A DNA stretch of 64,000 bases from Mobula hypostoma (GCF_963921235.1 NC_086108.1:26226001-26290000), one strand, 5' to 3'. Positions 8,932-58,850 are shown, counted from the stretch's first letter. Made by a program: numbers and translations. The notes: generated by a model not told the origin, from the letters alone.

Positions 8932-9121
8932 AACACGAGGAATTCTGCAGATGCTGGAAATTCAAGCAACACACATCAAAGTTGCTGGTGAACGCAACAG
9001 TCCAGGCAGCATCTCTAGGAAGAGGTACAGTCGACGTTTCGGGCCAAAACATCAACTGTACCTCTTCCTGGAGATGCTCCTTGGCCTGCTGCGTTCACCA
9101 GCAACTTTGATGTGTGTTGCT
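8932..9121. mobile_element. Palindromic PLE-derived mini-insertion in the Nimb tail
   Basis: Arms are reverse complements about GTTTCGGGCCAAAAC; matches the terminus of the GIY-YIG element at 57398; 15-bp TSD CGGAGAAGAAAAGTA at 8917-8931 and 9122-9136. Confidence 0.9.
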
Positions 9122-9646
9122 CGGAGAAGAAAAGTAGTAGTTCTGGCTGAGTGATCCAAGACCTTGTAAGTTCTACTCTTTTGGTAATAAAGTTCCTAGT
9201 TTTGTTTAACCCTTCTGAGTTGCTGTGTGATCCTGCACTTGTGTCCCATGAAGCAAAATGGTGCATTCACCCATATACCTCAGAGAAAATTGCTGCAGCA
9301 CACCAGACAATTTTCATTTTTGAGGTGCTCATGGTTATTTAGTTACTGAGTCTAACAGCACAGAAGCAGGCTCTTTGGCCCATCACATCAATGCCAACCA
9401 TTTTTCCCCATCTACACTCATCCCATTTGCCAACAATAGTGTATCCTTCCATGACTCGCTGATTTATTGTAGACAATTGCTGCAGCACTTGGTCACAATT
9501 AGAATAAATCATCTATAGCAACAATTTTTTTTCAACTGACTAAAGCACGAAAACGGACATTGAATTGCTAGCTGTCTAAACATTACTTGTCCTTTCTTTC
9601 TATCTCTGTCATTTCTTTCCTTGATAACAACACTCTTTTGTGCTTT

Positions 9647-11000
9647 AGACCATAAGACATTGGGACAGAATTAGACCATATGGCCCATCGAGACTGCTCT
9701 GCAATTTCATTACCTCTCAACTGCATTCACCTGCCTTCTCCCCATACCTTTTGCACCCTGACTAATCCACAACCTAACAACCTCTGCCTTAAATACACCC
9801 AATGACCTAGCCTCCACAGCTGCCTGTGGCAACAAATTCCATAGATTCATCATCCTCTGGCTAAATGTTCCCTCACATCTCCATTCTAAATTGACGTCCC
9901 TCTATTCTGAGGCTGTGCCCTTTGGTCCAAAACTCCCCCCGCCGTAGGAAACACCCTCTCCATCTAGGCCTTTCCATATTTGACAGATTTCAATGAGACC
10001 CCCGCACCCCCGCACCCCCACATTCTTCTAAATTCCAGCAGATAAAGGACAGACCCATCCATCACTTCTCATATGTTAAGTCTTTCATTCCCGGAATCAT
10101 TCTTGTCAATCTCCTCTGAAACCTCTTCAAAGTTAACACATCCTTACTTAAATAAGGGTCTCAAAACTGCTCACAATACTCCAAGTGAAGCCTCACTGCT
10201 CTCAGCATTACATCCTTGCTTTTATATTCTGTTCCTCAATAAATGAATGCTAACATTGTAGTTGCCTCTGACTCAACCTGCAAATTAACTTTTAGTGAAT
10301 CCTGCACGATGACTCCCAAGTCACTTTGCATCTCAGATTTTTGAATTTCTCTCTGTTTAGAAAATAGTCCATGGTTTTATTCCTTCTACCAAAGTGCATA
10401 ACCATACACATTCCGACATTCTATTCTATTTGCCAGTTCTTTACCCATTTTCCTATTCTGTCTATGTCCTTCTGTAGCCTCCCTGCTTCCTCAACGTTAC
10501 TTGCACTTCCACCTATCTTTGTATTGAAAATAAACCTAACTACAAAACCATCAATTCCACCATCCAAATCATTGATATACAATGTAAGAAGAAGCGGTCC
10601 CAACATTGACCTCTGTGGAACATCACTAGTCACTGGCAGCTAATCTGAAAAGGATCCCTTTATTGCCACTCTGTCTCCTGCCAATAAGCCAATGCTCTAT
10701 CCATGCTAGTACCTTTCTTATAATACCATGGGCTCTTATCTTGTTAAGCACCTTGTCAAAGGCCTTCTCTTCCGAAAATCCGACATCCAACAATTCATTT
10801 TTGTCTATCGTACTTGTTATTTCCTGAAAAAATTCAAACAGATTTGTCAGGCAAGATTTTCCCTAAAGGAAACCATGCTGACATTTTACCATGTGCCTCC
10901 AAGTACCCCATGCTACATCCTTAGCAATCAATTTCAACATGTTCTCAACCACTGAGGTCAGACCATCTGGCCTATAATTTCCTTTCTCATGCCTCCCTCC
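9647..11000 (-). mobile_element. Old degenerate CR1 LINE, 3' part
   Basis: ORF 10421-10633 TSDVPQRSMLGPLLLTLYINDLD...LQKDIDRIGKWVKNWQ; CR1-type 3' UTR and AGACCATAAGAC tail. Confidence 0.85.
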
Positions 11001-11444
11001 TTGTAGAGCAGTGTGTTTCATAGCAAGCTACCTATCCATTCTGCCACTGTTTCCTTGACTCTGTGTGTACTGACACTGATGAGTTCGCCATTAAAACATT
11101 TTTCAATATACTGCAGATATGGTTCCCTTATCTACATTTCTACTTGCTACTTCAAAGAACATAATAAGGTTGGTCATGTATGACTTTCCTTGTTGAAATA
11201 AAGGTCTATATCCTTTCCTAATGATATTGCAGAAATGAAAATCAACATAGGCATTGCAGAGTTTTGAACAGAATTTCCATCATAATGACTAACAGATTAT
11301 GCTCAGTCAAATCAGCCTCACCTATGGGAATATATATGCCATAAAATTAAACAAGCTTATTTTCTTCATATGTTAACAGCTACATAAGAAATAATTTAAT
11401 TAATCTATCAGTTACTTCTTTTCCCTGTTAGTTACAATGTCAAA

Positions 11445-11790
11445 ATTGAGTTCAAAGTAAATTTATTACTTCAATCTTGTTATACTGTCTCATTTGGATG
11501 TGTTCATGGGTATTCATGTATAGTTGAATGATAATTAAACTGGAATTGAGTTATCAAAGAATATATATAACACCATATACAACCCTGACATTTGTTTACT
11601 TGTGGGCATTCTCAATAAAGCCAGGAACCATAGTAGAATCAATGAAGGACTGTACTGAAAAGGGCCAGCAAACAATCAATGTGCAAAAGAAAACAAACAG
11701 AGCAAATACAAAAGAAAAACAAATAATAAAATAAGAATAATGAATAATCAAGTAATAAATATCAAGAATATGAGATGAAGAGTCCTTGAA
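11445..11790 (-). repeat. 3' end of a non-coding retroposon family
   Basis: Similar to 22860-23095 and to the reverse complement of 42430-42622. Confidence 0.55.
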
Positions 11791-11799
11791 GGGTGGAGC

Positions 11800-12429
11800 T
11801 TAGGAGGATGATGGCGCCAAATGGCGACTACTCTGCTTGCATCTTCCCTTTCAGGGTACTTCTGAAGACCCTGACCTGGAGTTACACGCTGACTTTGGTT
11901 CTTTGCAAGAATGGGACCCACTCTTGGGGTCTCACGACTGGCCGCTATTCGATATACTAAGGACGTGGCCTCGAAGACTAGCCCGACTTCAGGGTTCCAT
12001 GATTTCATGGCTCTGGAGGTGGGCAGACTCAAGGTCGGTGCCTCCGTAGGAAATTGGTATGTCGTGGGAGTACACGGAAGATTGAAAGCAGCAAGTTGGC
12101 TGCCAGCTGTGTGCTCAGAGACCAGAGTTCTTTTGGCACAGAGCTCAGAAAAAGTGATGCAACAGACATTTAACTTCGTAAATCAACAAGTTGTTTGCTA
12201 AGTCTCCCCTCTCACTGTGAAATGGAGACATCCCTTTCTCCCTTATCAGGGAAAGAGAGAGCCTGTGGTACGTCAAATTACCAGGTGAACAAGTAGTCTT
12301 TGGGGTACTGCAAGTCCATCTGTGTCTTTATTGATGCTTTGCTGCACACTTGAGTGCTCCGTGATGGGGGGGTGCGCCGATTTTTTTTTTTGCTGGTGGG
12401 GGAGGGGTATCATCGCTTTGCTGCTGCTT
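11800..12429 (+). repeat. Probable non-coding interspersed retroposon, truncated by the CR1 at 12430
   Basis: GATGGCG-type start and G/T-rich body loosely resembling 59634-60497; no coding motif. Confidence 0.4.
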
Positions 12430-13313
12430 ATAGAAACATAGAAACATAGAAAATAGGTGCAGGAGTAGGCCATTCGGCCCTTCGAGCCTGCACCGCCATT
12501 TATTACGATCATGGCTGATCATCCAACTCAGAACCCTGCACCAGCCTTCCCTCCATACCCACTGATCCCCGTAGCCACAAGGGCCATATCTAACTCCCTC
12601 TTAAATATAGCCAATGAACTGGCCTCAACAGTTTCCTGTGGCAGAGAATTCCACAGATTCACCACTCTCTGTGTGAAGAAGTTTTTCCTAATCTCGGTCC
12701 TAAAAGGCTTCCCCTTTATCCTCAAACTGTGACCCCTCGTTCTGGACTTCACCAACATCGGGAACAATCTTCCTGCATCTAGCCTGTCCAATCCCTTTAG
12801 GATTTTATACGTTTCAATCAGATCCCCCCTCAATCTTCTAAATTCCAACGAGTACAAGCCCAGTTCATCCAGTCTTTCTTCATATGAAAGTCCTGCCATC
12901 CCAGGAATCAATCTGGTGAACCTTCTTTGTACTCCCTCTATGGCAAGGATGTCTTTCCTCAGATTAGGAGACCAAAACTGCACACAATACTCCAGGTGTG
13001 GTCTCACCAAGGCCTTGTACAACTGCAGTGGTACCTCCCAGCTCCTGTACTCGAATCCTCTCGCTATAAATGCCAGCATACCATTCGCCTTTTTCACCGC
13101 CTGCTGTACCTGCATGCCCACTTTCAATGACTGGTGTATAATGACACCCAGGTCTCGTTGCACCTCCCCTTTTCCTAATCGGCCACCATTCAGATGATAA
13201 TCTGTTTTTAAACGCAAACAACAGGAATTCTGCAGATACTGGAAATTCAAGCAACACACATCAAAGTTGCTGATGAACGCAGCAGGCCAAGCAGCATCTG
13301 TAGGAAGAGGTGC

Positions 13314-13348
13314 AGTTGACGTTTCAGGCCGAGACCCTTCGTCAGGAC
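13314..13348 (-). ncRNA. Minimal hammerhead ribozyme-like motif (mirror copy)
   Basis: Reverse complement reads GTCCTGACGAAGGGTCTCGGCCTGAAACGTCAACT. Confidence 0.6.
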
Positions 13349-13353
13349 GAAGG

Positions 13354-13389
13354 GTCCTGACGAAGGGTCTCAGCCTGAAACGTCGACTG
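13354..13389 (+). ncRNA. Minimal hammerhead ribozyme-like motif
   Basis: GTC-CTGACGA-A-GGG TCTCAG CCT-GAAA-C-GTC-GAC: core CUGANGA, stem II, GAAA and GUC triplet. Confidence 0.65.
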
Positions 13390-14860
13390 CACCTCTTCCT
13401 ACAGATGCTGCTTGGCCTGCTGCATTCACCAGCAACTTTGATATGTGTTGCAATAATCTGTTTTCCTATTTTTGCCACCAAAGTGGATAACTTCACATTT
13501 ATCCACATTAAATTGCATCTGCCATGAATTTGCCCACTCACCCAACCTATCCAAGTCACCCTGCATCCTCTTAGCATCCTCCTCACAGCTAACACTGCCA
13601 CCCAGCTTCGTGTCATCCGCAAACTTGGAGATGCTGCATTTAATTCCCTCATCCAAGTCATTAATATATATTGTAAACAACTGGGGTCCCAGCACTGAGC
13701 CTTGCGGTACCCCACTAGTCACTGCCTGCCATTCTGAAAAGGTCCCGTTTAATCCCACTCTTTGCTTCCTGTCTGCTAACCAATTCTCTATCCACATCAA
13801 TACCTTACCCCCAATACCATGTGCTTTAAGTTTGCACACTAATCTCCTGTGTGGGACCTTGTCAAAAGCCTTTTGAAAATCCAAATATACCACATCCACT
13901 GGTTCTCCCCTATCCACTCTACTAGTTACATCCTCAAAAAATTCTATGAGATTCGTCAGACATGATTTTCCTTTCACAAATCCATGCTGACTTTGTCCGA
14001 TGATTTCACCGCTTTCCAAATGTGCTGTTATCACATCTTTGATAACTGACTCCAGCAGTTTCCCCACCACCGACGTTAGGCTAACCAGTCTATAATTCCC
14101 CGGTTTCTCTCTCCCTCCTTTTTTAAAAAGTGGGGTTACATTAGCCACCCTCCAATCCTCAGGAACTAGTCCAGAATCTAACGAGTTTTGAAAAATTATC
14201 ACTAATGCATCCACTATTTCTTGGGCTACTTCCTTAAGCACTCTAGGATGCAGACCATCTGGCCCTGGGGATTTATCTGCCTTTAATCCCTTCAATTTAC
14301 CCAACACCCCTTCCCTACTAACATGTATTTCGCTCAGTTCCTCCATCTCACTGGACCCTCTGTCCCCTACTATTTCTGGAAGATTATTTATGTCCTCCTT
14401 AGTGAAGACAGAACCAAAGTAATTATTCAATTGGTCTGCCATGTCCTTGCTCCCCATAATCAATTCACCTGTTTCTGTCTGTAGGGGACCTGCATTTGTC
14501 TTTACCAGTCTTTTCCTTTTTACATATCTATAAAAGCTTTTACAGTCAGTTATTATGTTCCCTGCCAGTTTTCTCTCAGAATCTTTTTTCCCCTTCCTAA
14601 TTAAGCCCTTTGTCCTCCTCTGCTGAACTCTGAATTTCTCCCAGTCCTCAGGTGAGCCACTTTCTCTGGCTAATTTGTATGCTTCTTCTTTGGAATTGAT
14701 ACTATCCATAATTTCCCTTGTCAGCCACGGGTGCACTACCTTCCTTGATTTATTCTTTTGCCAAACTGGGATGAACAATTGTTGTAGTTCATCCATGCAA
14801 TCCTTAAATGCTTGCCATTGCATATCCACCGTCAATCCTTTAAGTGTCATTTGCCAGTCT

Positions 14861-15535
14861 ACGCGACAGTGAGAGTAGGAATGCGATGAGGTGGAGGATA
14901 AATGCGTGGCTGAGGGATTGGAGCAGGAGGCAGAGATTCAAGTTTTTGGATCATTGGGACCTCTTTTGGCGCAGGCGTGACCTGTACAAAAAAGGACGGG
15001 TTACACTTGAATCCTAGGGGGACCAATATCCTGGCAGGGAGATTAGCGAGGGCAACTGAGGTGACTTTAAACTAGAATGGTTGGGGGGTGGGAATCAAAT
15101 TAAAGAGGCTAGGCGAGAGGAGGTTAGTTCACAACAGGGGGATGGGAACCAGTGCAGAGAGACAGAGGGGTGTAAAGTGAGGGTAGAAGCAAAAAGTAGT
15201 AAGGAGAAAAGTGAAAGTGGCAGGCCGACAAATCCAGGGCAAGCATGAAAAAGGGCCACTTTTCAACATAATTGTATAAGGGCTAAGAGAGGTGTAAAAG
15301 AGCGCCTGAAGGCTTTGTGTGTCAATGCAAGGAGCATTTGTAACAAGGTGGATGAATTGAAAGTGCAGATTGTTATTAATGATTATGATATAGTTGGGAT
15401 CACAGAGACATGGCTCCAGGGTGACCAAGGATGGGAGCTCAACGTTCAGGGATATTCAATATTCAGGAGGGATAGACATGAAAGAAAAGGAGGTGGGTGG
15501 CGTTGCTGGTTAAAGATGAGATTAACGCAATAGAA
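14861..15535 (+). mobile_element. Inverted upstream CR1 segment (end of ORF1 esterase, spacer, start of ORF2 APE)
   Basis: Encodes RWRINAWLRDWSRRQRFKFLDHWDLFW, then CVNARSICNKVDEL...GITETWL...RRDR...GGG; abuts the minus-strand CR1 at 14860/14861. Confidence 0.88.
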
Positions 15536-15619
15536 CGAAATACTTACTTGCTGCAGCTCCACAAGAGAAATTAAACATAAATTATACCGTTATTTTTAAA
15601 AGAAATAAACATAATCGGT

Positions 15620-15791
15620 GGGTATATTCATAGCGGAGTTTGGTAGATCCTGATTGGTCAGGGCATTAAGAGATCTGATGAGAGGACAGGTGTATGGGGT
15701 TGAATGGGATCCGGGATCAGCCACGATGAAATAGTAAGAGGAATTGATGTGTTAAACGGCCTAATTCTGCTCCTATGGCTTATGGTCTTAT
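15620..15791 (+). mobile_element. Short CR1 3'-end fragment
   Basis: GGGATCCGGGATCAGCC...GGCCTAATTCTGCTCCTATGGCTTATGGTCTTA; similar to 40380-40497. Confidence 0.7.
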
Positions 15792-15794
15792 AAT

Positions 15795-19028: not shown

Positions 19029-19275
19029 AAACACAAACGTGAGTAAGTCTGCAGATGCTGGAAATGGAGCAACAGAATACTAGAGGAATTCAACAGGTCA
19101 GGCAGCAGCTATGGAAATGAATAAACAGTCGAGATTTCAGACTGAGACTCTTCTTCAGGACTGAAAAGGAAGAAGGGAGACACTAAGAAAAAAAGTGGTG
19201 AGAGGGGAAGGAGGATAGCTAGAAGATGATAGGATAGGTGGGCGGGAGAAGAAAGAATGGTGATTGATGTGTGAC
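19029..19275 (-). mobile_element. Older PLE 3'-terminal fragment with a degenerate hammerhead motif
   Basis: TCTGCAGATGCTGG terminus; reverse complement near 19126-19163 reads CAGTC-CTGAAGA-AGAGTCTCAGTCT-GAAA-TCTC-GACTG. Confidence 0.7.
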
Positions 19276-19805
19276 TTGGGTTGCCAACTTTCTCACTTCC
19301 AAATAAGGGACAAAATAGCAGTCAAATACAGGACACTTGTGTTTATCCCAAAAAAGACTAACATGACCATGAAGCCTTGCGCGGGCACCTGTATGAGCAT
19401 GCGTGTATGTGCCGATTTGTTTCTACAAATCGGTTTTGGCTTAATCTTCCTGATTCTGTTAAGTGGAACTACACCGTACATACATTATTTCTACTTTATA
19501 TAGGCTGTGTATTTATCATATAACTCCTGCACTTACTATATGTTAGTGTTATTTTAGGTTTTATGTGTTACTTGGTATGATTTGGTAGGTTATTTTTTGG
19601 GTCTGGGAACGCTCAAAAATTTTTCCCATATAAATTAATGGTAATTGCTTCTTCACTTTATACCATTTCGGCTTACGAACGGTTTCATAGGAATGCTCTA
19701 CCTTAGCGGTGGGGAATACGGGACAAGGGCGGTCCTGTATGGGACAAACCAATTTAGCCCAATATACGGGATGTCCTGGCTAATATGGGACAGTTGGCAA
19801 CCCTA
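19276..19805. mobile_element. Non-autonomous hAT element (Blackjack-like termini)
   Basis: TIRs T(T/A)GGGTTGCCAACT; perfect 8-bp TSD TGTGTGAC at 19268-19275 and 19806-19813; repeated subterminal GGGAC motifs. Confidence 0.92.
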
Positions 19806-19835
19806 TGTGTGACCAATAGAGGTAATAGGTGCTAA

Positions 19836-19996
19836 ACACAAAGATGACAAAATCTGTATATGCTGGAAGTCCAAGCAACACGCACAAAAATGCTGGAGGA
19901 ACTCAGCAGGGTCTCAGCCCGAAACATCGACTGTATTCGTTTCCATAGATGCTGCCTGGCTTGCTTGGTTCTTCCAGCATTTTGTGTGTTGCTGAG
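19836..19996. mobile_element. Asymmetric PLE fold-back mini-insertion
   Basis: 12-bp TSD AATAGGTGCTAA at 19824-19835 and 19997-20008; GCAACACGCACAAAAATGCTGGA pairs with TCCAGCATTTTGTGTGTTGC. Confidence 0.85.
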
Positions 19997-21409
19997 AATA
20001 GGTGCTAATGGTTTTGCCTTGAGTTTGTGGTTTGTCAAGGTAACAGTGGAGAGGAATACTGTGGGGGAGGTCTGTTCATGTTGCTGCAGTGGATGGTACA
20101 GGCTGAGGCTGGGGTGCAACCAAGCACGCAGGCAGAGATATTTAATTTCAAGTAAACCATCACAAATTGAGATCTCAGTCAATCATCTTTGCTAGGTGTG
20201 AATCATAAAACTAATTAGTTGTGCAGACATCAAACCCTATTTAGATTTTTGCCAAGCATCCCAACCAGACATACCTAGTCACACTTCCGAACAAAAGTGA
20301 GTTTTTCCTAGATGGGGTTTCCTAAAGAGGTGATAATGTGATAAAGAATGAAACTGTGAAGTGTACTGCTAATGATAGCTAGATCAGTGGATTGATGTTG
20401 TGTTCATTGCATTAAATGGGAAACACAGTGCTAAGTGCATTTAATGGATTATCTCGACAGTGAAGAATAATTCACATTGAACAATCCCAAGAAATGTTGC
20501 AATGCATAGACCTGCCAAATAGAATACCCTGTGCAAGGAGACATTTCCTTCTTAATTGCTCTTTTTTCCTCTCAGATCACCAAATATTCATCAAACAAAT
20601 GTACCTTGCAATCCTATAAATTATCACTGACCTCCCATTCTTTCTAACATCAATTTTAGTTAATTGTGCTTAAGTTTTATCCACAGCTCAATCATTTTAT
20701 CTGGGTATAAAGCCCTACAGAAATGTTTAAGCTTAGTCAGAGCTTGTATTATTTGAAAATTATAGTCATGTTAGTGTCTGATGAATAACCAGGGCATGTT
20801 TGTTAGGATTAAATTTTGTGCATGCTGAGCCAGATTAATAGGTGTGCTAATGGGGAGGGTGGCTTGAATGTTATATCACTGGAGAGTGATCGGGTGTACT
20901 GAATGGGCAATGCAAATTGAAAGAATATTTTCATATTATATTAGTGACAATGAATTGTTATTATCATTTTTAAAAAACTTACAGTTTCACTATATCTCCA
21001 AAGGAAGGAAACATATTGTCCTTTCCCAACCTGCCTATCATAACAAACCCACTCATTTGATGCGGAACTGTCCTCTGACAGAGCAGTGGTTGCCAATCAG
21101 TTGCATTAAACAGTGAGCAATTGAGGAGATTGGTGATGGAGAGAATCAGCAGCTTTAAATTCCTGGTCTTATCAGTAACACTGCTTTGTTGTGTGTGAAT
21201 GGGCAGGATTTTTCTGCATTAACACCAGTGATGAGAAGTTTTCTGCATTTATGTGTGAGTGTGAAAGTTTTGCATATGCAATTGGCAGTTCACCCACACT
21301 TTCCTGACTGCGATCTAACCCTTGGTTTATTTAATCTTCAAATATTTATGTGTTTTAAAGTATTTTAGTTTCTGCTCAGTTAAATTTCTAACGTTGATAA
21401 TTGTTTGAC

Positions 21410-22855: not shown

Positions 22856-22859
22856 TAAA

Positions 22860-23095: not shown

Positions 23096-23336
23096 TTTTT
23101 TTCCTTTGTTTATACTCTCCCTCTTTAGCAACTCTCACTATCCCAGCAAAATAATTTCATAAATACCTTATCCCAATTGCAACCTTGGCCTCATTTTGCC
23201 TAAAATATTTCCTTACTCCTGCCCGTATCATTTCTTCAAATCATAACTACCTTGATTTCTCGTTTTCTCGGTTATGTCAACCTGAAATGTTAACTCTGTT
23301 TCTCTCTCCTTGGTTGCTGCTCCACATTCTGCAAAC

Positions 23337-23432
23337 GTCCTGATGAAGGGTCTCAGCCCGAAATGTCGACTGTTTTATTAATTTCCATAAATGCTGCCTA
23401 AACTGCTGAGATCCTCCAGCATTTTGTGTGTG
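23337..23432 (+). mobile_element. PLE terminal-repeat fragment carrying a hammerhead motif
   Basis: GTC-CTGATGA(23340-23346)-A-GGG TCTCAG CCC-GAAA-T-GTC-GACTG, followed by ...CCAGCATTTTGTGTGTG. Confidence 0.75.
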
Positions 23433-23444
23433 AAGGTGAGTAAA

Positions 23445-23865
23445 TGATCCTCCAAGAGGACAGCAATCTTGTCATGGCTTCTGTGCCTCAATGACCCTGA
23501 AGGCTATGCTGCTTGGGTCAGGACTTTATGTCTGGCTCTTGGTAGGATCATCCATGACAAGCAGGTCAAAGGGTAGAGGCCAGGCTAAGTGTAGTCCACC
23601 AGCCCTCAAGGTTCAGGGGTTCAGCTCAAAGCTAACCATCCCGACTGGTCAAACAAAACTGTTATGGAAAGAGCAATGAAGAATCCTTCTACATCTGTGT
23701 GCAGCAGTATTCCTGAGTCTCCACCCAGGACTTGCATGGCTAACGGTAGTGAAAACTGAAAGGAAGCGACTGGCGTGATGAAGGAAGCCCTGAACACCAA
23801 CAGGTAGAGATGGAGGACCTTCATTGCTGCCATAAATGCCAGCAGGCATAGCAGGCAGCAGGTAA
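23445..23865 (+). mobile_element. Short non-coding RTE-related element (probable 5' UTR fused to 3' end)
   Basis: GTGCCTCAATGACCC...CAGGTCAAAGGGTAGAGGCCAG head and TGGAGGACCTTCATTGCTGCC..ATGCCAGC tail; second copy nearby; family from memory of motifs. Confidence 0.55.
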
Positions 23866-23919
23866 ATATGTATTTACTTACTTCTAATCCATACCATCAT
23901 ACACAGATATATCAGGATT

Positions 23920-24155
23920 CTTCATTGCTGTTTCCATAGCAATTTTTTTGACCAGTCAATGTTGTTAGTCCTGAGCTGAACCCCTGAACCTAGAGAACTA
24001 GTGGACACGCTTAATCTGGCCTCTACCCTTTGACCTTTTTGGCATTGATGACCCTTGTGCCAAAGCACAAGAGCCAACATTGTTCTCTGGGTCATTGAGG
24101 CACGCAAGCCTCCAAGCCATGATAACGTTATGGTCTTCTTGGAGGAGTAGCGAAG
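23920..24155 (-). mobile_element. Second partial copy of the same RTE-related element, inverted
   Basis: Reverse complement contains GCGTGCCTCAATGACCC, GGTCAAAGGGTAGAGGCCAG and GGTTCAGGGGTTCAGCTCA, shared with 23480-23680. Confidence 0.65.
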
Positions 24156-25205: not shown

Positions 25206-25424
25206 ATATTTGTCAGTGTTGAACAGATTGAGTTTGTACATCTGGCAGGAGCAAAGGATCCTGGGAATACAGAGGGTGGGGCACCAAGGAAAGGGTGTGG
25301 GACAGGTGGCAGAGAAGGAGGACCAGGGCAGGGGGTGGTGCGGGTGCAGACACACCCAGCCCTGAGACACCATTTGATTCCAAACAATCAGTTTATTGAC
25401 ATTACAGAATGTCTCTCTGATGCT

Positions 25425-25609
25425 AACACGAGGAAATCTGCAGATGCTGGAAATTCAAGCAACACACACAAAAAATGCTGGTGAACACAGCAGGCCAGGC
25501 AGCATCTATAGGAAGAGGTACAGTCCAAGTTTCGGGCCGAAACGTCGACTGTACCTCTTCCTATAGATGCTGCCTGGCCTGCGGCGTTCACCAACGTTTT
25601 TTGTGTGTC
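25425..25609. mobile_element. Palindromic PLE-derived mini-insertion
   Basis: Centre GTTTCGGGCCGAAAC; TSD TCT(C/T)TCTGATGCT at 25412-25424 and 25610-25622 (one mismatch). Confidence 0.85.
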
Positions 25610-25778
25610 TCTTTCTGATGCTTCCTACTCTCTCCACTCCCTGTTTCCCTTTTCCCAACCATGATTCCCTGCTCTCTGTCCTTTTCTGATTCTCAGTCCT
25701 CAATAAAGACCCATATCGTAATCAGGTTTATCATCAATCACATATGTCATAGAAACATAGAAACATCAAAAACCTATG

Positions 25779-25895: not shown

Positions 25896-25943
25896 TGATG
25901 GCAGTTTGATGTTGTCTTACTCTGTTGTTGCTGCTGCTTGTGT

Positions 25944-28900
25944 TAGAAAATAGAACATAGAACATAGAACATAGAAAACCTACAGCATAATACAGGCCCT
26001 TCGGCCCACAATGCTGTGCCAAACATGTACTTATTTTAGAAATTACTTAGGGTTACCTATAGCCCTCTATTTTTCCAAGCTCCATGTACCTATCCAGGAG
26101 TCTCTTAAAAGACCCTATCATATCTCCAGAGTGAGGGGTCACAGTTTGAGGATTCCAGAATGAGGGGTCACAGTTTGAGGATAAAGGGGAAGCCTTTTAG
26201 GACTGAGATTAGGAAAAACTTCTTCACACAGAGAGTGGTGATTCTGTGGAATTCTCTGCCACAGGAAACGGTTGAGGCCAGTTCATTGGCTATATTTAAG
26301 AGGGAGTTAGATATGGCCCTTGTGGCTATGGGGATCAGGGGGTATGGAGGGAAGGCTGGTGCAGGGTTCTGAGTTGGATGATCAGCCATGATCATAATAA
26401 ATGGCGGTGCAGGCTCGAAGGGCCGAATGGCCTACTCCTGCACCTATTTTCTATGTTTTCTATGTTTTCTATATCCGTATTCACCTCTGTCGCTGGCAGC
26501 CCATTCCACGTGCTCACTACTCTCTGCATTAAAAAAAGTACCCCTGATATCTCCTCTGTACCTACTTCCAAGCACCTTAAGACTATGCCCTCTCATGTTA
26601 GCCATTCCAGCCCTGGGAAAAAGCCTCTATTTATCCACACGATCAATGCCTCTCATCATCTTATACACCTCTATCAGGTCACCTCTCATCCTCCGTTGCT
26701 CCAAGGAGAAAAGGCCGAGTTCACCCAACCTATTCTCATAAGGCATGCTCCCCAATCCAGGCAATATCTTTGTAAATCTCCTCTGCTCACTTTCTATGGT
26801 TTTCACATCTTTCCTGTGGTGAGGCGACCAGAACTGAGCACAGTACTCCAAGTGGGGTCTGACCAGAGTCCTATATAGCTGCAACATTACCTCTCAGCTT
26901 CTAAACTCAGTCCCATGATTGATGAAGGCCAATGTACCATAGGCCTTCTTAACCGCAGAGTCAACTTGTGCAGCAGCTTTGAGTAGCCTATGCACTCAGA
27001 CCCCAAGATCACTCTGATCCTGCACACTGCTAAGAGTCTTACTACTAATACTGTATTCTGTCATCATATTTGACCTACCAAAATGAACCACTTCACACTT
27101 ATCTGGGTTGAATTCCATCTGCCACTTCTCAGCCCAGTTTTGTATCCTATCAATGTCCCGCTGTAACCTCTGACAACCCTCCACACTATCCACAACACCC
27201 CCAACCTTTGTGTCATCAGCAAATTTACTAACTCACCTCTCCACTTCCTCATCCAGGTCATTGATAAAACAAAGAGAAGGGGTCCCAGAACAGATCCCTG
27301 AGGCACTCCACTGGCACCGACCTCCGTGCAGAATATGACTGGTCTACAATCACACTTTGCCTTCTGTGAGCAAGCCAATTCTAGATCCACAAAGCAAGGT
27401 CCCCTTGGATCCCATGCCTCCTTACTTTCTCAAGAAGTCTTGCATGGGTACCTTATCAAAAGCCTTGCTGAAATCCATAGACACTACATCTACTGCTCTA
27501 CCTTCATCAATGTGTTTAGTCACATCCTCCAAAAATTCCATCAGGCTCATAAGGCACAACCTGCCTTTGACAAAGCCATGCTGACTATTCCTCATCATAT
27601 TATGCCTCTCCAAATGTTCATAAATCCTGCCTCTCAGGATCCTTTCCATCAACTTACCAACCACTGAAGTAAGACTCACTGGTCTATAATTTCCTGGGCT
27701 ATCTCTACTCCCTTTCTTGAATAAAGGAACAACATCTGCAACCCTCCAATCCTCCGGAACATCTCCCGTCCCCATTGATGATGCAAAGATCATTGCCAGA
27801 GGCTCAGCAATCTCCTCCCTTGCCTCCCACAGCAGCCTGGGTTACATCCAGCTTATCCAACTTGATGCTTTCCAAAAGCTCCAGCACATCCTCTTTCTTA
27901 ATGTCTATATGCTCAAGCTTTTCAATCCGCTGTAAGTCATCCCTACAGTCACCAAGAACCTCCTATGTAGTGAATACTGAAGCAAAGTATTCATTAAGTA
28001 TCTCTGCTGTCTCCTCCAGTTTCATACACACTTTCTCACTGTCGCACTTGATTGGTCCTATTGTCTCACGTCTTATCCTTCTGCTCCTCACATTCTTCTA
28101 GAATGCCTTGGGGTTTTTCTTAATCCTGCTCGCCAAGGCTTTCTCATGGCCCCTTCTGTCTCTCCTAATTTCATTCTTAAACTCCTTCCTGCTAGCCTGA
28201 TAATCCTCTAGATTTCTATCATTATCTAGCTTTTTGAACCTTTTGTAAGCTCTTCTTTACTTCTTGATTAGATTTTCAACAGCCTTTGTACACCACGGTA
28301 CCTGTACCCTACCATCCTTTCCCTGTCTCATTGGAACATACCTATGCAGAACACCACGCAAATATCCCTTGAACATTTGCCACATTTCTGCCATACATTT
28401 CCCTGAGAACATCTGTCCCCAATTTATGCTTCCAAGTTCCTATCTTGGAAAGATAGCTTCATATTTCCCCTTACTCTAATTAAACGCTTTCCGAACTTGT
28501 CTGTTCCTATCCCTGTCCAATTTTATGGTAAAGGAGATAGAATTATGATCACTATCTCCAAAATGCTCTCCCACTGACAGACCTGACACCTGACCAGGTT
28601 CATTTCCCAATACCAGATCAAGTACAGCCTTGTAAGCTCTTGTAGGCTTATCTACATATTGTGTCAGGAAACCTTCCTGAACACACCTAACACACTGCAC
28701 TCCATCTAAACCCCTTGCTCTAGGGAGATGCCAATCAATATTGGGGAAATTAAAATCTCCCACCATGACAACCCTGTTATTATTACACCTTTCCAGAATT
28801 TGTCTCCCTATCTGCTCCTCTATGTCCCTGTTACTATTGGGTGGTCTATAAAGAAACACCCAGTAGAGTTATTGACCCCTTCCTGTTTCTAACCTCCACT

Positions 28901-30312
28901 CACAGAAACTCAGTAGACAGTCCTTCCATGACTTCCTCCTTTTCTGCAGCCGTGACACTATCTCTGATCAGCAGTCCCACGCCCCCACCACTTTTGCCTC
29001 CCTCCCTGTCCTTTCTTAAACATCTATAGCCTGGCACTTTAAGTAATCATTCCTGCCCCTGTACCATCCAAATCTCTGTAATGGCCACAACATCATCGCT
29101 CCAAGTACTGACCCACTCTCTAAGCTCATCCACTTTGTTCATGATGCTCCTTGCATTAAAATAGACACACCTTAAACCATCAGTCTGAGCGCATCCCTTC
29201 TCTATCACCTACGTATCCTCACTCTCGCACTGTTTCCAAGTTTTCTCTATTTGTGAGCCAACAGGCCCTTCCTCTGTCTCTTCAGTTCGGTTCCCACCCC
29301 CAACAATTCTAGTTTAAACTCTCCCCAGTAGCCTTAGCAAACCTCCCTGCCAGCCTATTAGTCCCCCTCGGATTCAAGTGCAACCCATCTCTTTTGTACA
29401 GGTCACGCCTGCCCCAAAAGAGGTCCCAGTGATTCAGAAATCTGAATCCCCGCCCCCGGCTCCAATCCTTCAACCAGGCATTTATCCTCCACCTCATTCT
29501 ATACTCACTGTCACATGACACAGGCAGTAATCCTGTGATTACTACCTTTGAGGTCCTGCTTCTCAACATCCTTCCTAACTCCCTGTAGTCTGTTTTCAGG
29601 ACCTCTTCCCTTTTCCTACCTATGTAATTGGTACCAATATGTACCACGACCTCTGGCTGTTCACCTTCCCACTTCAGGGTATCATCCTGGAAGCCGGCAC
29701 CTGGGAGGCAAACTACCATCTGCATTTCTTTCCTGTGTCCACAGAATCGCCTGTCTGACACCTAACTATATAGTCCCCTATTACTGCTACCTTCTTTCTT
29801 TCCCTACCCTTCTGAGCCACAGGGCCAGACTCTGTGCCAGAGGCACAGCCACTGTTGCTTCCCCCAGGTAGGTCCCCCCCCCCCAAAAACAGTACTCAAA
29901 CAGGAGTACTTATTGTTAAGGTGGACAGCCACAGGAGTACTCTCTAGTATCTGCCTCTTGCCCTTCCCTCTCCTGACTGTTACCCACTTATCTGTCTCCT
30001 GAGGCCCCGGTGTGACTACTTGCCCATAGCTCCTCTCTATCACCTCTTCACTTTCCCTGACCAGACGAAGGTCATCGAGCTGCAGCTCCAGTTCCCTAAC
30101 CCGGTCCCTAAGGAGCCACAACTCGATGCACCTGGTGCAGATGTGGCCTTCCTGGCTGGGAGTCTCCTGGACTTCCCACATCTGACACCCATTACAGAAT
30201 ACCGGTCTCACAGAAAACTTCCTGTTTCTATTCTTCGCAGATAACCTACCTGGCCTCGACCCATTATCACCAAAGGCCCGTTGAACCAAAGCCCTTCTAC
30301 TCTCTCTCCCAA
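25944..30312 (-). mobile_element. Near full-length degenerate CR1 LINE (ORF1 zinc finger, leucine zipper and SGNH esterase; ORF2 APE and RT)
   Basis: VFCNGCQM...HICTRCIEL..LRDRVRELELQL (29804-30322); CLPGA...VHIGTN...DGLHLN (29309-29761); YRPPNS, GDFNFP, SDH (28476-28859); DFSKAFDKV; (ATAGAAC)n tail near 25950. Confidence 0.93.
26125..26471 (+). mobile_element. Young CR1 3' fragment nested antisense in the older CR1, with a 29-nt duplication at its 5' junction
   Basis: Nearly identical to the reverse complement of 12430-12747; (TTTTCTATG)n tail. Confidence 0.92.
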
Positions 30313-36575: not shown

Positions 36576-37579
36576 GAAAATAGGGTTAGGGTCACTATAA
36601 CCCTAAGGCAAACATGAGGCAGGAGCTGGAAGGACTTGATAAGTTCTTTCCCAGGGGCTTTCCCTTCCATTAGAGGAGATGAAATCAGGGCCCAGGTGTA
36701 CATCTCGCTCAGAGAACAGAAATTCGGACAGTGGTTTATTCTGCAATGCATGTCTTTGAATGTCAGACTTCATTACAAAGGGTACAATTGAACTAGGAAG
36801 CCAAATGATTCAGGATTGAGATGATTAGTAAAAATATGCACAGTGGATTTGGTAAGTTTTATTTTAGATGGCAAGTTTCAGTGATTTCAGTTAATTACCT
36901 GAAATTCTGTGGGAATTTTCGAAAGAAAATAGAATAAATACATTGAAAGGGACATAAAAAGGGAACATAGGAAACAAAGAGAGGGAAGAAGAACTACTCT
37001 AGAGACTTTAACATAGATTCAAATAGTATTATGGTTGAAATTTTGACTGTATGATATGTGTGTAATATTCCATGAATCTGTGTACAAGTCTCTGGAGCAA
37101 ATTAATGCCCTTTTTAGGAAAAATCTGAATGCTGCACTGACCCAAATCTTTAGTGTGTTGATTTAATTTGACAGACCCTACAGGTTCTGTTCTGCCTTTT
37201 ACTTTTGGCAAGAAGGAGGAAAATGTTACAGAACAAAAATAATGATCCAATGGGAAGCAAGTTTGAATATTTCCTCTTATTTGCTGACTGACAGGATTTA
37301 CTTGCTCAAATAATAAACGCATAAGAAAGGTGGAACTACAAAATTAATTAAAACTCTTTAAGATGTAGTTGCGGAGAGATTCAGCAATAATGCATGAACT
37401 CCAAAGTTACTCACTACAAACAATTTGCTGATTGGCCACTAGATTATAAAATTCACCAGAGGCAGAAACGTGGCTATGTATAATCTTTTGACATTATTTA
37501 TTACAAATGCCATTGAACTTTCCTTTTTATTATAAACACTGGCACACTGAGCTTGCTACTAATACTATCCATATTGTTT

Positions 37580-38067: not shown

Positions 38068-38252
38068 AAACCAACAGGATTCTGCAGATGGTAGAAATCT
38101 TGAGCAACACACATAAAGAGCAAGCTCACAAGTTAGGTAGCATCTATTGAGAGGAATATGCATTCAATGTTTCAGGCCAAGACCTTGAAGGGTATGAAGA
38201 TGTTGCCTGACCTGCTGACCAGCTCTGATACCTCTGGTGTGTGATGCTCAAG
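38068..38252. mobile_element. Old degenerate PLE fold-back insertion
   Basis: TCTGCAGATG...CTTGAGCAACACAC left arm, GTGTGATGCTCAAG right arm, turn near GACCTTGAAGGGT. Confidence 0.55.
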
Positions 38253-39625: not shown

Positions 39626-39698
39626 AAACACAAGATCTTCTGCAGATGCCAGAAATCTTGAGCAACATACACTCACTGCTGGAGGAACTCAGCAAGTC
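39626..39698 (-). mobile_element. PLE 3'-terminal fragment
   Basis: AAACACAAGATCTTCTGCAGATGCCAGAAATCTTGAGCAACATACAC...GCTGGAGGAACTCAGCA. Confidence 0.6.
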
Positions 39699-39714
39699 GC
39701 TCCACAGTCCAGAA

Positions 39715-44492: not shown

Positions 44493-45620
44493 AATCCAAT
44501 TTATTCAGTGAGGAGAAGTCAACCAGGCACATTGCAAATTGTAAAACTTGAATAGACTGAGGCAAGCCAGAGGAAGACAGACAAGTAAGAAGAATCTGCA
44601 AACTGAATTTTTTCCAGCGTCAGTTCTCTGAATGTTGCATTGAGAAGTTAAAAATGATCAAGCACACACACAACATTTGTCAGTACATCTGCATGACTCT
44701 GCTCAACACTCTTCCCTTCAGGCTCCCTCTGTAACTCTCACGTTCCCAGGTGTGATAACACAAGAGAGCTGGCTTCCTGCACATCATTCATCTGTTCTGC
44801 TTCTCTGTGCCAGAGAGAAAATTGATTGCAGCAACAGAGTTGAGATTCTTTCCAAACTCTTTGACAGATCCTGTCTGCTGCTAGTTAACAACTAAATTCA
44901 TTTTGAGTGAATCTGAGTGCTGGGCGTTTCAGTGGAGCAGGTGGATCTGTGTTTAAGTAATCAAGAGTAATAATTACAGAAATCCAAGTTACTTCAGAAA
45001 AAAACCCTTTTCCAGAATATCATTTATCCATCTCTTTTTTTACAGACAGCAATAACTGAACTTGAAGTTAGTCATGTCTTCAAACCGGGGGACACTGAAT
45101 CGTAGATATCTGATGAAAAGGCTCCATCTATTACTATTTCTAAAAGCAAGTTTTAAGATTTCCCTTTTCCACTCCTTATGCATAAGCTTTTACCTCCTGC
45201 TTGAAAATAAATCAGGGTGGGGGGAAGAGAGGAGTGTAAGTTGGCGTGGTTAGCAACCTATTGAATGTATCTTGTAAAAACTGAGTCTAATCCTCTCTGT
45301 TGCTCAGTCTTTAAAAAATTCCATTGATAATTTGTGGAATTCCTATTTATAAAGTATTAATTCTGTTGGAATATTTATCTCCACAAGGAGGATCCATGAT
45401 CATTAAATCTGTCACATTAAATGAAAGGCCTCAAAAGAATTGCAGAGGTAAACGCGTCAACACAGGAATAATAAAAAGAAAATGGAAATCCTCCATTGGC
45501 CGGGCAACATCCATACAGAGAGAAACTGAGTTAGTGTTTTATTCCAAAGACAAATGGGTCCGCGCACTCTTGTGAGTGGGCTGTGGAACTGGCTCGGTAA
45601 TCACACTTACAGTATAAATA

Positions 45621-45660
45621 AGCAACACACATCAAAGTTGCTGGTGAACTCCTCATGTTT
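45621..45660. mobile_element. 40-nt minimal PLE-derived insertion
   Basis: AGCAACACACATCAAAGTTGCTGGTGAAC plus TCCTCATGTTT; TSD ACAGTATAAATA at 45609-45620 and 45661-45672. Confidence 0.85.
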
Positions 45661-46099
45661 ACAGTATAAATATGCACATACTAGCCAAATAGTGTTTCAT
45701 TGTGATGGTCTTTAACTCTCTTCCTCTCCTCCTTGTGCTGTTGAGACTTGACAAAAAGCAATGTCTACACTCCCTGCTTACCTTCTCCCTTGTTCTGGGA
45801 AAGAAGACTACCACTTTGATAGACTCTGTAAAGGAGCAGTAGTATTAAGTTACTGCTTCCCAGCTGCAGTGTCAGCGTTAACTTTCATGTTAGGATTTTT
45901 TAATTAATGACCTGTTATCCTAGCGTTTATTGGTTTTCCTTTAATTCTTCGCAGTTCTTAATGAAACTTGGGCCATAACCTCACCCTTGTGTCAGCAAAC
46001 CCTGGCCACTAAAACAGACAGAATGGAGAGAGAACAGCTGATCTTGACCATGAATTTCATTGGGCAAGTTGGAGAAAGGCTGGTTTGGCTGATATAGCT

Positions 46100-50260: not shown

Positions 50261-50984
50261 AGTGATGGGGTTTGCAACTGAGGATGCCCCAGTGACATAA
50301 ATGCAAACCATATATCTTCTCATGAATCAAATGACGAAGTACAGTCTGGACCATTTAATGCACCTTTAAAAATTCCCATGTTAAGATATACAAAGTGTAT
50401 CAAATGGATTTTTTGCATTTTCATCTATTTAATAAGTCTAGAAATTTACTTTTGATGACAAAGATTCAGATATCAAAATTAAACCAGAAATGTTAGCCAG
50501 CATAACCAAGATTCATTCATACATCGTCTGCAACTGTGTCAAGAGAAGGCATTCACTCTTCTCTCAAACATTTTATATAAGTCATACTCTGTAACATAGC
50601 GCAGCTGCAGACCATTTTCACCCAAGATTCTCACTGAAGTATTCAAAGTCAGTGATGAGGACAAAGATATACTCTCATTGCTTGGTTGCATATCCTGCCT
50701 GTTGGCAGCTTCATCAAAGGAGCCCAAAAGTCTCAGTATCAGTTACTAAAAGTCAGTGAATTTCTGTGCACGTGCCAACAGAAGATTTCCTTCACTTCTC
50801 TTCAGATACAAAGAGACTGTATGGAAAACACAATGTCATGGCTGAGCTGGTTGGACCGTTCCCAATTACAGAACAGGTGCAAGTTAGTTAAGCAAAGGGA
50901 AGTGTCTCTGCTTCTTGGTTCTGTTTCTGATTGCAGTTCCGGCTTCACACAAAACCACATTCCCCCCACCCCCCACCCCCCCAG

Positions 50985-52314: not shown

Positions 52315-53039
52315 CCCCCCAGTCCCCTAGTATGGCACATTTGCACAAATTTAAACGTGTTGGTCATGTGTGTGTGTGTGCGTGTGGAATGGAGGAGCAA
52401 GATGGAAGAATGATTGCCAATTATAAAAATGTAATGTCTTGACTGAGCTTCTATTTCATACGAAGAAATCTGCTAGATTAATATTATTATCATTGATCAT
52501 ACATGCTTGAAAATGTAAACTCATAACCATCATCCATATGCATAAAACTTGATTTGCAAAAGAGAAATGCTGTGGATGACTTTTAAAAAAAAGAAAGGTT
52601 ATAATTTTGTGCATGCTGCCACTCTTTTCACTGCTGGGTAGTTTAGATGGTGTGAAAATCTTTCTTTTGTTTTGGAATTAACCTGTCATAGTGTTAATAC
52701 ATACAGGGAATTCATGGTATCTTAAATGTCGTGACATTTCAAAACTCGAATGTCCTGAATTAAACAAACTATTGTTTCAATACCACAGTTAATGTACAGA
52801 GACCAATTGCAATAAAATTTGACATGACTTGAACATGCCACAGACACATTTCTTACATAACCTTCAAATTGTCATGTCATCCATCTTGTATATAGACCAA
52901 TTCACTCTGCTCACTTCCAATATCTCTAAGCTACAGACACATTACAGTCTGCAGATTAGTCTTTGGAGTATTGAGAGCAAGATCTGTGCGAGAGCAGGAA
53001 ACAATGAAAACAGCAAGTCTTGTTTGTGTGTTTCACCTG

Positions 53040-55991: not shown

Positions 55992-57829
55992 CAACATCAA
56001 TATCTATTCAACTCTTTGGTCATGAAGTCTACAACTAACAGGTCTCATTTTCAATCTCAACCTGCTGTACACCACCACACAGCATTTACCATCGCAAGTT
56101 TCTTCATGTATTTGTTATAATTCTATCTGTTGCCTCCCTACCACCCTAGAGCTTTGAAATAATTTGTGTCCCACTTGTTTAGCACAAGGCTCATTCGCAT
56201 CCTGTCTATGCAATTCAAAACTAATGAGGACCAGCAGACTAGTGCAGGTGTGGTTTCTTGCTAGCTGATAGAGTAACAGGCCAGGGACTGACAAAGAAAA
56301 TGTGATTGCACTAAAACTACTACTAGCATGTGAAGAGCTTGCAAGTACCACTGAAGAACATGAATGCATTTTAAATCTGTTCAATCATAAATGTCTGATA
56401 CAAAATAGAACTTGCAATGGTTTACTGAATTATGCAGTAATGAAATCTAATTCACATTTGTTAATGAAGGTAATTTAAAAATGGGAAGACCCTCAAGCTA
56501 TATTTGATGCTCCTATTAATGCTACCTACTCTTTTGTTTCAATGTCTCCATTTTATTTATAGAATTGTAGAATTCCAACATCACAGAAGGAAGCTATTGA
56601 TCAATGTAGATCTCATCCCACCACACTTTACCCAGAATCCTACAAATTATTCTTTCTCATGTATAACTCACTCCTTTTGTTAGTCAATAAAAAAACTGCA
56701 GATAGGAGTGTGTGCTGTGTTTGTTCTTCAATCCATCGATATTATTCTTTCTGTTTAGAAAAGTGACAGATTGCAGAAAATGCTTAGGAAACTTTAGTCC
56801 TTGTGGCCTTTGTAAATTTTGAAATGTTGCCCTGCTCTTCGTGTCAAAGTAATTTACTGACTCTTCCAGAAACAACTTCCTGTTTTGTTCCTTAAAACCA
56901 TTTCATGATCCACACTGAAATTGGCCCTTTAGTGACCTCAAATTTGCAAATGGTCCAGACATGCTTGTACAACTTGTGAAATGATTAAAGTTATGGGATT
57001 CTATTAAGCACCCTCTGGAAATTCACATGGATGACATCTGCTGCATTAACCTTCATTTACTCATAAATAAACATCCATTCAAGTGGGTCAAGTACGTTTG
57101 GTCTATAAAAAATTCCATACTCCTTGATAAACTAATATTTTCCTTGATTATCATTTCTGAAAATGTTTGGCCCAAAAACTTAAAATCTAAGAAAAAAACC
57201 TTGTGCATATAAGGATTGTACTTGGTATGGGAATGCCCAGTTTTTTAATATTATAGCAAGATTGAGAGAAAAAGTTCAGCATTTGGAGTTTGGGGTGAGA
57301 CAGACTAAAATAAAAAGACTTTCTAGCTAATAATACAAACTGCGTACACCAGAGTGTTTCTACATTTTGTTGAAGAACATTGGTGTGATAATAACTCAAA
57401 CACGAGGAAATCTGCAAATGCTGGAATTTCAAGCAACACACATAAAAGTTGCTGGTGAATGTAGCAGTCCAGGCAGCGTCTCTAGGAAGAGGTACAGTCA
57501 ACGTTTCGGGCCAAGACCCTTCGTGAGGACTAACTGAAAGAATAGCCAGTAAGAGATTTGAAAGTGGAAGAGGGAGGGGGAGATCCGACATGATAGGAGA
57601 AGACAGGAGGGGGAGGGATGGAGCCAAGAGCTGGACAGTTGATAGGCAAAAGGGATATGAGAGGATCATGGGACAGGAGGCCCAGGGTGAAAGAAAAAGG
57701 GGAGGGGGGAAAACCCAGAGGATGGGCAAGGGGTATAGTCAGAGGGACAGTGGGAGAAAAAGGAGAGAGAGAGAAAGAATGTGTATATATAAATAAATAA
57801 TGGATGGGGTATGAGGGGGAGGTGGGGCA

Positions 57830-58156
57830 TTAGCGGAAGTTTGAAAAGTCAGTGTTCATGCCATCAGGTTGGAGGCTACCCAGACGGAATATAAGGTGTT
57901 GTTCCTCCAACCTGAGTGTGGCTTCATCTTTACAGTAGAGAAGGCCGTGGGTAGACATATCAGAATGGGAATGGGACGTGGAATTAAAATGTGTGGCCAC
58001 TGGGAGATCCTGCTTTCTCTGGCGGACAGAGCATAGGTGTTCAGTGAAACGATCTCCCAGCCTGCGTCGGGTCTTGCCAATATATAGAAGGTCACATTGG
58101 GAGCACCGGATGCAGTATTTCACCCCAGCCGACTCACAGGTGAAGTGTTGCCTCAC
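57830..58156 (-). pseudogene. PLE GIY-YIG endonuclease domain (C-terminal fragment of the polyprotein)
   Basis: FTCESAGVKYCIRCSQCDLLYIGKTRRRLGDRFTEH...PVATHF...RLEEQHLIFRLGSLQPDGMN. Confidence 0.92.
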
Positions 58157-58487
58157 TTGGAAGGACTGTCTGGGGCCCTGAATGGTGGTGAGGGAGGAAG
58201 TGTAAGGGCATGTGTAGCACTTGTTCTGCTTACAAGGATAAGTGCCAGGAGGGAGATCAGTGGGGAGGGATGGTGGGGACGAATGGACAAGGAAGTCATG
58301 TAGGGAGCGATCCCCGCGGAAAGCGGGGGGGGGGGGTGGTAGGGAAAGATGTGCTCCTGTCCCATGATCCTCTCATATCCCCTTTTCCAATCAACTGTCC
58401 AGCTCTTGGCTCCATCCCTCCCCCTCCTGTCTTCTCCTATCATTTTGGATCTCCCCCTCCCACTTTCATATCTCTCACTAGCTCTTT

Positions 58488-58529
58488 CAGTTAGTCCTGA
58501 TGAAGGGTCTCGGCCCGAAACGTCAACTG
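58488..58529 (+). ncRNA. Minimal hammerhead ribozyme-like motif in the inverted repeat arm
   Basis: AGTC-CTGATGA(58497-58503)-A-GGG TCTCGG CCC-GAAA(58517-58520)-C-GTC-AACTG. Confidence 0.7.
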
Positions 58530-58850
58530 TACCTCTTCCTAGAGATGGTGCCTGACCTGCTGCATTCACCAGCAACTCTTATGTGTGTTGGTGTGATGAT
58601 TAGACTATTATAAGTCAAGAAACAGGAGTTAAAGGATCATAAAGGTTGAGATTTCTGAAAAGAGAAGGTTAAGGAAAGTAGGGAAACTTACAGCTCTGTG
58701 AGTCAATGGAAGTGGTTAGAAGAAAGATGCAACTTTGATAGATAGTTGCAACTTTGATAGAATGACAAGGTAGGGAAGGACATGAGTGTGGTTTGTGCGA
58801 TCTCCAGAAGTGGAAAAATAATTAGATAAAATGTTGACATGGATGGACAT

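Follow-up and report, generated by a model that had tools for sequence, protein, structure and literature searches.

Penelope-like elements (PLEs) with a C-terminal GIY-YIG nuclease, known as EN+ PLEs, leave composite ends in their host genomes. According to the accessible text of the published descriptions, an inverted 5'-truncated copy lies beside the insertion and a tail of 30-40 bp is often present at one end only (Craig et al. 2021, PMC8557442); in a rotifer, inverted pseudo-long terminal repeats (pLTRs) come with an optional 31-bp tail and target site duplications (TSDs) of 8-10 bp (Arkhipova et al. 2013, PMC3846280); in D. virilis, a 34-37 bp repeat accompanies inverted termini of variable size (PMC2377424); and inverted pLTRs and short 3' extensions are standard features in curation (PMC8969392). 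Here, we analysed a 64 kb stretch of the Mobula hypostoma genome (GCF_963921235.1 NC_086108.1:26226001-26290000; hereafter the window), in which a preliminary description had recognised seven fold-back insertions built from the 3' terminus of a PLE. We found these copies to be real, ordinary PLE end fragments that were inserted separately. They are most probably heavily 5'-truncated insertions of a high-copy GIY-YIG PLE, in which the two target strands, once nicked, each prime cDNA synthesis, using two starts 33-41 nt apart, and the resulting cDNAs are joined via 3-4 matching bases.

The copies share with the canonical EN+ PLE unit, as far as it is laid out in the text available, the inverted truncated partner, the one-sided tail (33-41 nt here versus 30-40 and 31 bp), TSDs of variable length (10-15 bp in the window, against 8-10 bp in the rotifer), a hammerhead in the terminal repeat, and a GIY-YIG nuclease at the C terminus. 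They differ from it in that most are cut down to two tips (41-244 nt), and in that no tandem direct pLTR is present in the window, which contains no full-length copy. In vitro, the protein of the Poseidon element PAc from Anolis carolinensis cuts both strands, and both are extended (Frangieh et al. 2024, PMC11167929). In the parts of that report at hand, reverse transcriptase (RT) initiates at two internal positions that flank the tail, and hammerhead cleavage is unnecessary. The ray copies resemble PAc in these two starts bracketing the tail, in the extension of both strands, in their A/T-rich targets and in a template uncut at the hammerhead. PAc, on the other hand, has no CX2-5CxxC linker and starts at an AC-rich stem-loop, whereas the present element has a linker and GU-rich starts, and the accessible text on PAc gives no account of how arms are paired or joined. 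The architecture itself is thus not new: a one-tailed inverted copy (PMC8557442, PMC3846280) and two RT starts (PMC11167929) can be found in the available text of earlier reports.

To locate the arms, a profile made from 12 of them was run across the window; weak nhmmer matches at 37130, 51748, 62876 and 63950 (E 0.24-8.4) and at 63357 (E 0.26) were excluded from all counts. All seven previously named loci were recovered (A to G), together with three single arms at 23337, 19029 and 39626 (H, I and J) that had been overlooked (Table 1). For the TSDs, direct repeats were sought near both boundaries and scored against 1,500 random position pairs. The 10-15 bp duplications reported for the six clear copies, A to F, were borne out, each scoring at least 10 and above every random pair (best random score 9), while the score of 6 for G (p ~0.057) was not above chance. 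In C, three extra nucleotides precede the right TSD. Copy B interrupts a little-decayed RT frame of a long interspersed nuclear element (LINE) on the minus strand at 12531-14937. Removing 256 nt (the element and one TSD) from this host yields a stop-free frame of 717 codons, compared with 503 codons in the uncut sequence and 572 or 496 codons for cuts of 255 or 257 nt; the boundaries and TSD of B are therefore confirmed, since the 256-nt cut restores the longest frame. A search of the window for paralogous empty sites of the six copies was negative, the single spanning match (E) being its own locus.

Table 1. Features of the PLE end fragments in the window. Repeat positions in the last column count 57398 as position 1.
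Feature	Coordinates	Strand	Description
Copy A	8931..9121		tailed arm 1-117 head-to-head with tail-less arm 35-112; 4-nt junction overlap
A TSD	8917-8931 and 9122-9136		15 bp exact
Copy B	13209..13452		tailed arm (outer sub-site) and tail-less arm; both end at 133
B TSD	13197-13208 and 13453-13464		12 bp exact
Minimal type I hammerhead motif (B right arm)	13353..13390	+	descriptor scan; putative ribozyme
Copy C	19834..19996		diverged variant; tailed arm to ~70, tail-less arm to ~126
C TSD	19824-19835 and 19997-20008		12 bp exact (10 if shared AA assigned to element)
Copy D	25425..25609		junction of A, different source variant
D TSD	25412-25424 and 25610-25622		13 bp, 1 mismatch
Copy E	45620..45660		28-nt tail-less arm (34-62) and 12-nt tail stub; opposite orientation
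E TSD core	45607-45620 and 45659-45672		14 bp exact
Copy F	57393..58590		~960-nt tailed arm into nuclease coding region and 246-nt inverted tail-less arm (58354-58590)
F TSD	57380-57392 and 58588-58600		13 bp, 1 mismatch
PLE open reading frame (ORF), 3' end	57830..58297	-	CX4CX2C linker, then GIY-YIG nuclease, CxxC within motif; reads toward terminal repeat and tail
Copy G	38068..38248		decayed, two-armed: tailed 1-121, tail-less 35-84
Arm H	23337..23432	+	tail-less arm 40-133, descriptor-positive hammerhead; partner and TSD not found
Arm I	19029..19268	-	older tailed arm, descriptor-positive hammerhead, interrupted by later terminal inverted repeat (TIR) element; partner and TSD not found
Arm J	39626..39698	-	tailed arm 1-72, then unrelated repeat sequence; partner not found

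Every two-armed copy combines one arm that includes the tail with one that lacks it (7/7; p 0.008 if the arms chose independently). In A, D, E, G and J the tailed arm begins at repeat positions 1-2; in B, C, F and I it begins 5-6 nt farther outward. The outer end of the tail-less arm is at 34-36 in A, B, C, E and G, at ~37-40 as placed by eye in D and F, and at 40 in H. For D and F, the local alignment extended into the TSD, and their outer ends were therefore set by eye. From the start positions of the two kinds of arm, the tail measures 33-41 nt. F begins at 57393, and not at 57398 as first described, because it uses the outer tailed sub-site. The pairing of one long with one short outer end had therefore been correctly recognised, but its end-points are clustered rather than fixed, with two sub-sites 6 nt apart at the tail and a spread of ~7 nt among the tail-less ends.

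At the inner side, the tailed and tail-less arms stop at ~117/112 in A and D, 133/133 in B, 70/126 in C, 12/62 in E, 960/282 in F and 121/84 in G, and H stops at 133. The inner junction had been thought to be the only variable part; A and D have an identical junction, and it is their outer ends and source variant that differ. E, moreover, is not a fold-back insertion like the others, because its tail stub and its tail-less arm cover different parts of the repeat; the copy as a whole faces the other way, and its arms are non-complementary except for a 3-nt overlap.

Contigs from sequencing runs (4 of the 23 listed) were mapped onto one arm. Three DNA-type runs contain 299, 237 and 216 contigs, respectively, that depart from the repeat at 57397, and their flanks beyond this point are unrelated and A/T-rich (agreement 0.40-0.41), which supports the tail end as a genuine and very common end of the element. 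With 109,223 contigs mapped to the arm in the top run, the family is very abundant. Pattern scans for copies elsewhere returned none in viral contigs and none in prokaryote genomes, and two loci in metagenome contigs, both isolated 23-nt matches without further similarity to the element.

Read from the target into the element, the strand on both sides of the copies has the antisense orientation relative to the ORF and corresponds to cDNA. This polarity fits two target-primed syntheses starting from nicks that would lie 10-15 nt apart. In the mechanism that we propose, both target strands would be nicked with this stagger, and the tailed arm would be primed from a nick 3' of a T. Each event would use one outer and one inner RT start, and the two unfinished cDNAs would be joined by microhomology, followed by fill-in. 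The templates of the arms may be either two RNAs or two copies of the terminal repeat within one RNA. All nine tailed arms are preceded by a T (background 0.32 each), suggesting that the nick lies 3' of this base. In the six copies with a TSD, the T is part of the duplicated target, and B has one further T. The computed junction overlap is 4 nt in A and D and 3 nt in E, and C has 3 nt as judged by eye. Random joints of the repeat give an overlap of at least 3 nt with a probability of 0.054, and the overlaps therefore point to joining by microhomology.

The same geometry could arise if a single target-primed cDNA folded at a short palindrome, copied itself and halted before reaching the tail. 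Self-priming of a related kind, with an antisense template, was proposed in a report whose available text also describes palindromes at inverted junctions (PMC3846280). Consistent with such snap-back, A and D turn at a near-palindrome in hammerhead helices II-III, the arms of a copy are nearly identical (non-CpG differences at 2/76 positions in B and 1/54 in D), and in A, B, D, F and G the tailed arm spans all of the tail-less one. In C, however, the tail-less arm runs ~56 nt past the inner end of the tailed arm, and the two arms of E share no sequence. Because in both copies the tail-less arm holds sequence that the tailed arm lacks, the arms are not copies of one another, and two of the seven pairs cannot be self-copies. 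The tail-less end also coincides with a published RT start site rather than with a random stop. We consider snap-back unlikely and prefer two separately primed syntheses. In L1 twin priming, both target strands likewise prime cDNA, and inverted pieces joined by microhomology end up between TSDs; there, the site of the second priming event varies, and the two pieces derive from different segments of the RNA. In the ray copies, by contrast, both starts occupy set positions close to one end, and one stretch is usually copied twice, once in each arm.

We then compared the arms of different copies with each other. A fold-back element that is copied as a unit is expected to have left arms that resemble left arms. 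Across ten copy pairs, 37 informative non-CpG columns group the arms by copy, 1 groups them by side and none is crossed; for A and D, the columns number 5, 0 and 0. Since the arms group by copy, both were made from one source at insertion, and since they do not group by side, the copies are independent insertions and not a self-copying or retrozyme family. The notion that copies with identical junctions, such as A and D, form a self-propagating clade was not upheld by these columns.

A non-autonomous fold-back or retrozyme-like family, propagated as a unit by PLE proteins, had been one of the options in the preliminary description. It draws on the identical junction and similar size of A and D (191 and 185 nt), given that ~46 distinct junctions with an overlap of at least 4 nt are possible in that part of the repeat, and on non-autonomous PLE derivatives being described in the accessible text of PMC8557442 and bioRxiv 10.64898/2026.07.22.740005. 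The five columns at which A and D differ while the arms within each copy agree, with none by side, argue instead that the arms were re-made from one source, and the copies range in length from 41 to ~1,200 nt. Non-LTR retrozymes are reported, in the text available, as direct tandem units of ~170-400 nt with a hammerhead in each unit, expressed as circles (Cervera and de la Pena 2020, PMC7229834; bioRxiv 10.64898/2026.07.22.740005). Like them, the present copies are short, non-coding, PLE-related and associated with a type I hammerhead; unlike them, they are inverted pairs and mostly lack the full ribozyme. They do not fit the retrozyme definition, as no direct tandem of the terminal repeat occurs among the ten tandem arrays in the window, and four of the six clear copies (A, C, D and E) have no catalytic core. 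We therefore regard a family copied as a unit as very unlikely. The junction shared by A and D is best read as a hotspot at the near-palindrome formed by hammerhead helices II-III.

An origin as MITEs (miniature inverted-repeat transposable elements) or foldback DNA transposons, formed from PLE sequence and moved by a transposase, would account for short, non-coding inverted repeats bounded by TSDs. Yet the TSDs vary between 10 and 15 bp, the two ends differ in sequence by the tail and so provide no matched TIRs, E has no inverted repeat at all, and F holds a retroelement nuclease. A nearby TIR element at 19277-19803, in contrast, has matched ends and an 8-bp duplication. The earlier view that the copies are not MITEs is thus well founded, and we give this origin almost no credence. 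The other earlier proposal, that the copies form a size series of integration products from two primed syntheses, agrees with every test we ran and, in essence, was already in print.

The hammerhead association applies to part of the set only. B and F span the whole motif, although it is decayed in F, while the other four clear copies do not, and a descriptor of the minimal hammerhead matched a single arm of the six. In the window it gave three matches (the right arm of B, H and I), all within these arms, compared with none in 20 shuffled sequences; no window match reached the gathering threshold of Rfam. The motif in the right arm of B comprises the core CUGA-GA, a 4-bp helix II, GAAA, a palindromic remnant of helix III, a GUC site and a 4-bp helix I. 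Schistosoma has been reported to carry dual minimal hammerheads on opposite strands, separated by 100-700 bp (Cervera and de la Pena 2014, PMC4209133), and the accessible text of the same report extends the minimal motif to Neptune, Poseidon and Xena elements of fishes. B and F represent such pairs, down to the unpaired base before helix II and the palindromic helix III remnant; the Schistosoma report, in the text available, differs in giving no TSD or end-point anatomy. No arm terminates at positions 102/103, the cut site of the hammerhead. This rules out ribozyme cleavage as the origin of the junctions, and the templates were likely uncut.

The two arms of B and arm H, which stem from two variants, stop at one and the same base (133; window positions 13348/13354 and 23337). 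This shared stop at the 5' edge of helix I could mark a pause or the 5' terminus of an RNA. The corresponding place in D. virilis is the end of an intron. That a splice acceptor there causes the stop at 133 was not supported, as the three arms run on into different sequences and share no exon. The terminal RNA folded no better than shuffled sequences (z -0.79 twice), and the alignment fold of eight tailed arms showed a compensatory change in 0 of 10 pairs, so a conserved stem-loop at the start site is unsupported.

The link to PLEs rests on copy F, whose long arm enters the coding region. Its frame reads YCIRCSQCDLLYIG, followed by the conserved residues R, H, E and N, as in a C-terminal GIY-YIG nuclease with two cysteines in the motif (CCHH), and ends 430 nt before the tail. 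The match to PF01541 (E 5e-4, 20.6 bits) falls below the cut-off of 22.6 bits. The nuclease end has 16 homologues of at least 273 residues; the best, 91% identical, is named from Mobula hypostoma, and another close one comes from Hypanus sabinus. RT motifs precede the nuclease in the homologues P0001 (the 91% match), P0003 and P0007. In P0007, RVT_1 was detected below its cut-off and GIY-YIG above it, and RVT_1 was matched in one of the three homologues scanned. The RT upstream of the nuclease is seen in the homologues only, the window copy being 5'-truncated; with a GIY-YIG end whose homologues have a Penelope-type RT, F nevertheless substantiates the PLE connection drawn earlier. The first and last cysteines of the CX4CX2C linker in F are invariant across eight aligned sequences. 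A CX2-5CxxC linker between RT and nuclease defines the Neptune/Nematis type in the accessible text of PMC8557442, and by those definitions the sequence identifies the element as a C-terminal EN+ PLE of Neptune or Nematis type; the vertebrate host alone would favour Neptune. Neptune elements are called poorly characterised in the available part of PMC12602865. The PLE ORF was also found fused into the annotated ray gene models P0003, P0004, P0008 and P0010 (DIPK1C, mucin-2, RTP3-like and chitinase-domain isoforms), which are probably the result of annotation read-through into insertions.

Several points weigh against the two-start reading or limit its reach. All ten loci come from one 64 kb window, and for three of them (H, I and J) no partner arm could be identified. 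The 7/7 mixed pairing may be inflated because the seven pairs were originally chosen by their shape. Not every junction carries an overlap: B has a 5-nt insert copied from adjacent sequence, the junction of G is unreadable and the overlap in F is not measurable. Among the column comparisons, A and F share one column by copy and one by side, and the counts of different copy pairs are not independent of each other. No pile of tail-less ends appears among the 24 of 2,142 loose ends listed from the contigs, and no usable strand-switch joint among the 15 of 135 joints listed, where the one opposite-strand joint lies at the edge of the stretch; neither result is evidence either way. The in vitro support, finally, comes from a Penelope/Poseidon element with AC-rich starts, and the present element has the linker of the Neptune/Nematis type and GU-rich starts. 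In its accessible text, the PAc work saw no strand difference in start site and includes no test of start pairing (PMC11167929); Fig. S2 of that report, a map of genomic ends, may be relevant to the proposed pairing.

A stricter version of the two-start model, in which the pairing is obligate, is tentative at best. A dimeric PLE protein would use the outer start for one cDNA, primed from a nick 3' of T, and the inner start for its partner. Double run-off at the RNA 5' end, at the 5' edge of helix I, would yield the most frequent mini-copies. The 41-nt copy E would then be the bare minimal product. Our search, made without most subscription papers, found no literature on this PLE family in rays or on the paired use of two starts.

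The end signature described here is that of known PLEs in another host, and its immediate use is to keep such hairpins from being annotated as MITEs or as a new ribozyme element. The small points of interest that are left are the 3-4 nt junction overlaps, the T before nine tailed arms and the three arms ending at one hammerhead edge. If thousands of copies were to show strict start pairing, a T at the nick and a stop at the edge of the hammerhead, these features would extend the two-start model from Poseidon in vitro to a Neptune-type element in vivo. They would also constrain how the second strand and the inverted repeat form, a question left open in the text available from PMC11167929 and PMC8557442. 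If, in addition, the pairing were obligate, tens of thousands of scars in ray genomes would amount to a base-resolution record of the formation of the PLE inverted repeat and tail, a step that published work still terms undefined.

The window is repeat-rich, with 41.5% G+C. A Pfam scan of 146 of its 159 stop-free frames of at least 78 residues returned mostly retroelement domains (RT, endonuclease, RNase H and zinc knuckle), and no clear host exon was seen in these frames. Nine of the ten loci have the element sense on the minus strand, with only E reversed (two-sided p 0.021, post hoc). This shared orientation could reflect a surrounding intron, although the Pfam scan found no host exon.

A number of other elements surround the copies. 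The TIR element at the inner end of arm I, ~530 bp long, has 18-nt TIRs and an apparent 8-bp duplication, TGTGTGAC; we take it to be hAT-like. Directly after arm H lies an element of ~700 bp (23448-24146) with inverted arms of ~250 nt that are 74% identical. Copy A is located just beyond the 3' end of a decayed non-LTR element on the plus strand (4558-8743) with zinc knuckle, endonuclease, RT and RNase H. A LINE on the minus strand (28479-29761) carries a GDSL-esterase-like ORF1 ahead of the endonuclease. Two 320-bp stretches in opposite orientation (12429-12746 and 26154-26473) are 97% identical and likely correspond to the 3' parts of young LINEs. Finally, the sequences at 23275-23322 and 63357-63445 resemble much older, single-direction PLE ends, with weak support from the profile (E 0.26 for the second).

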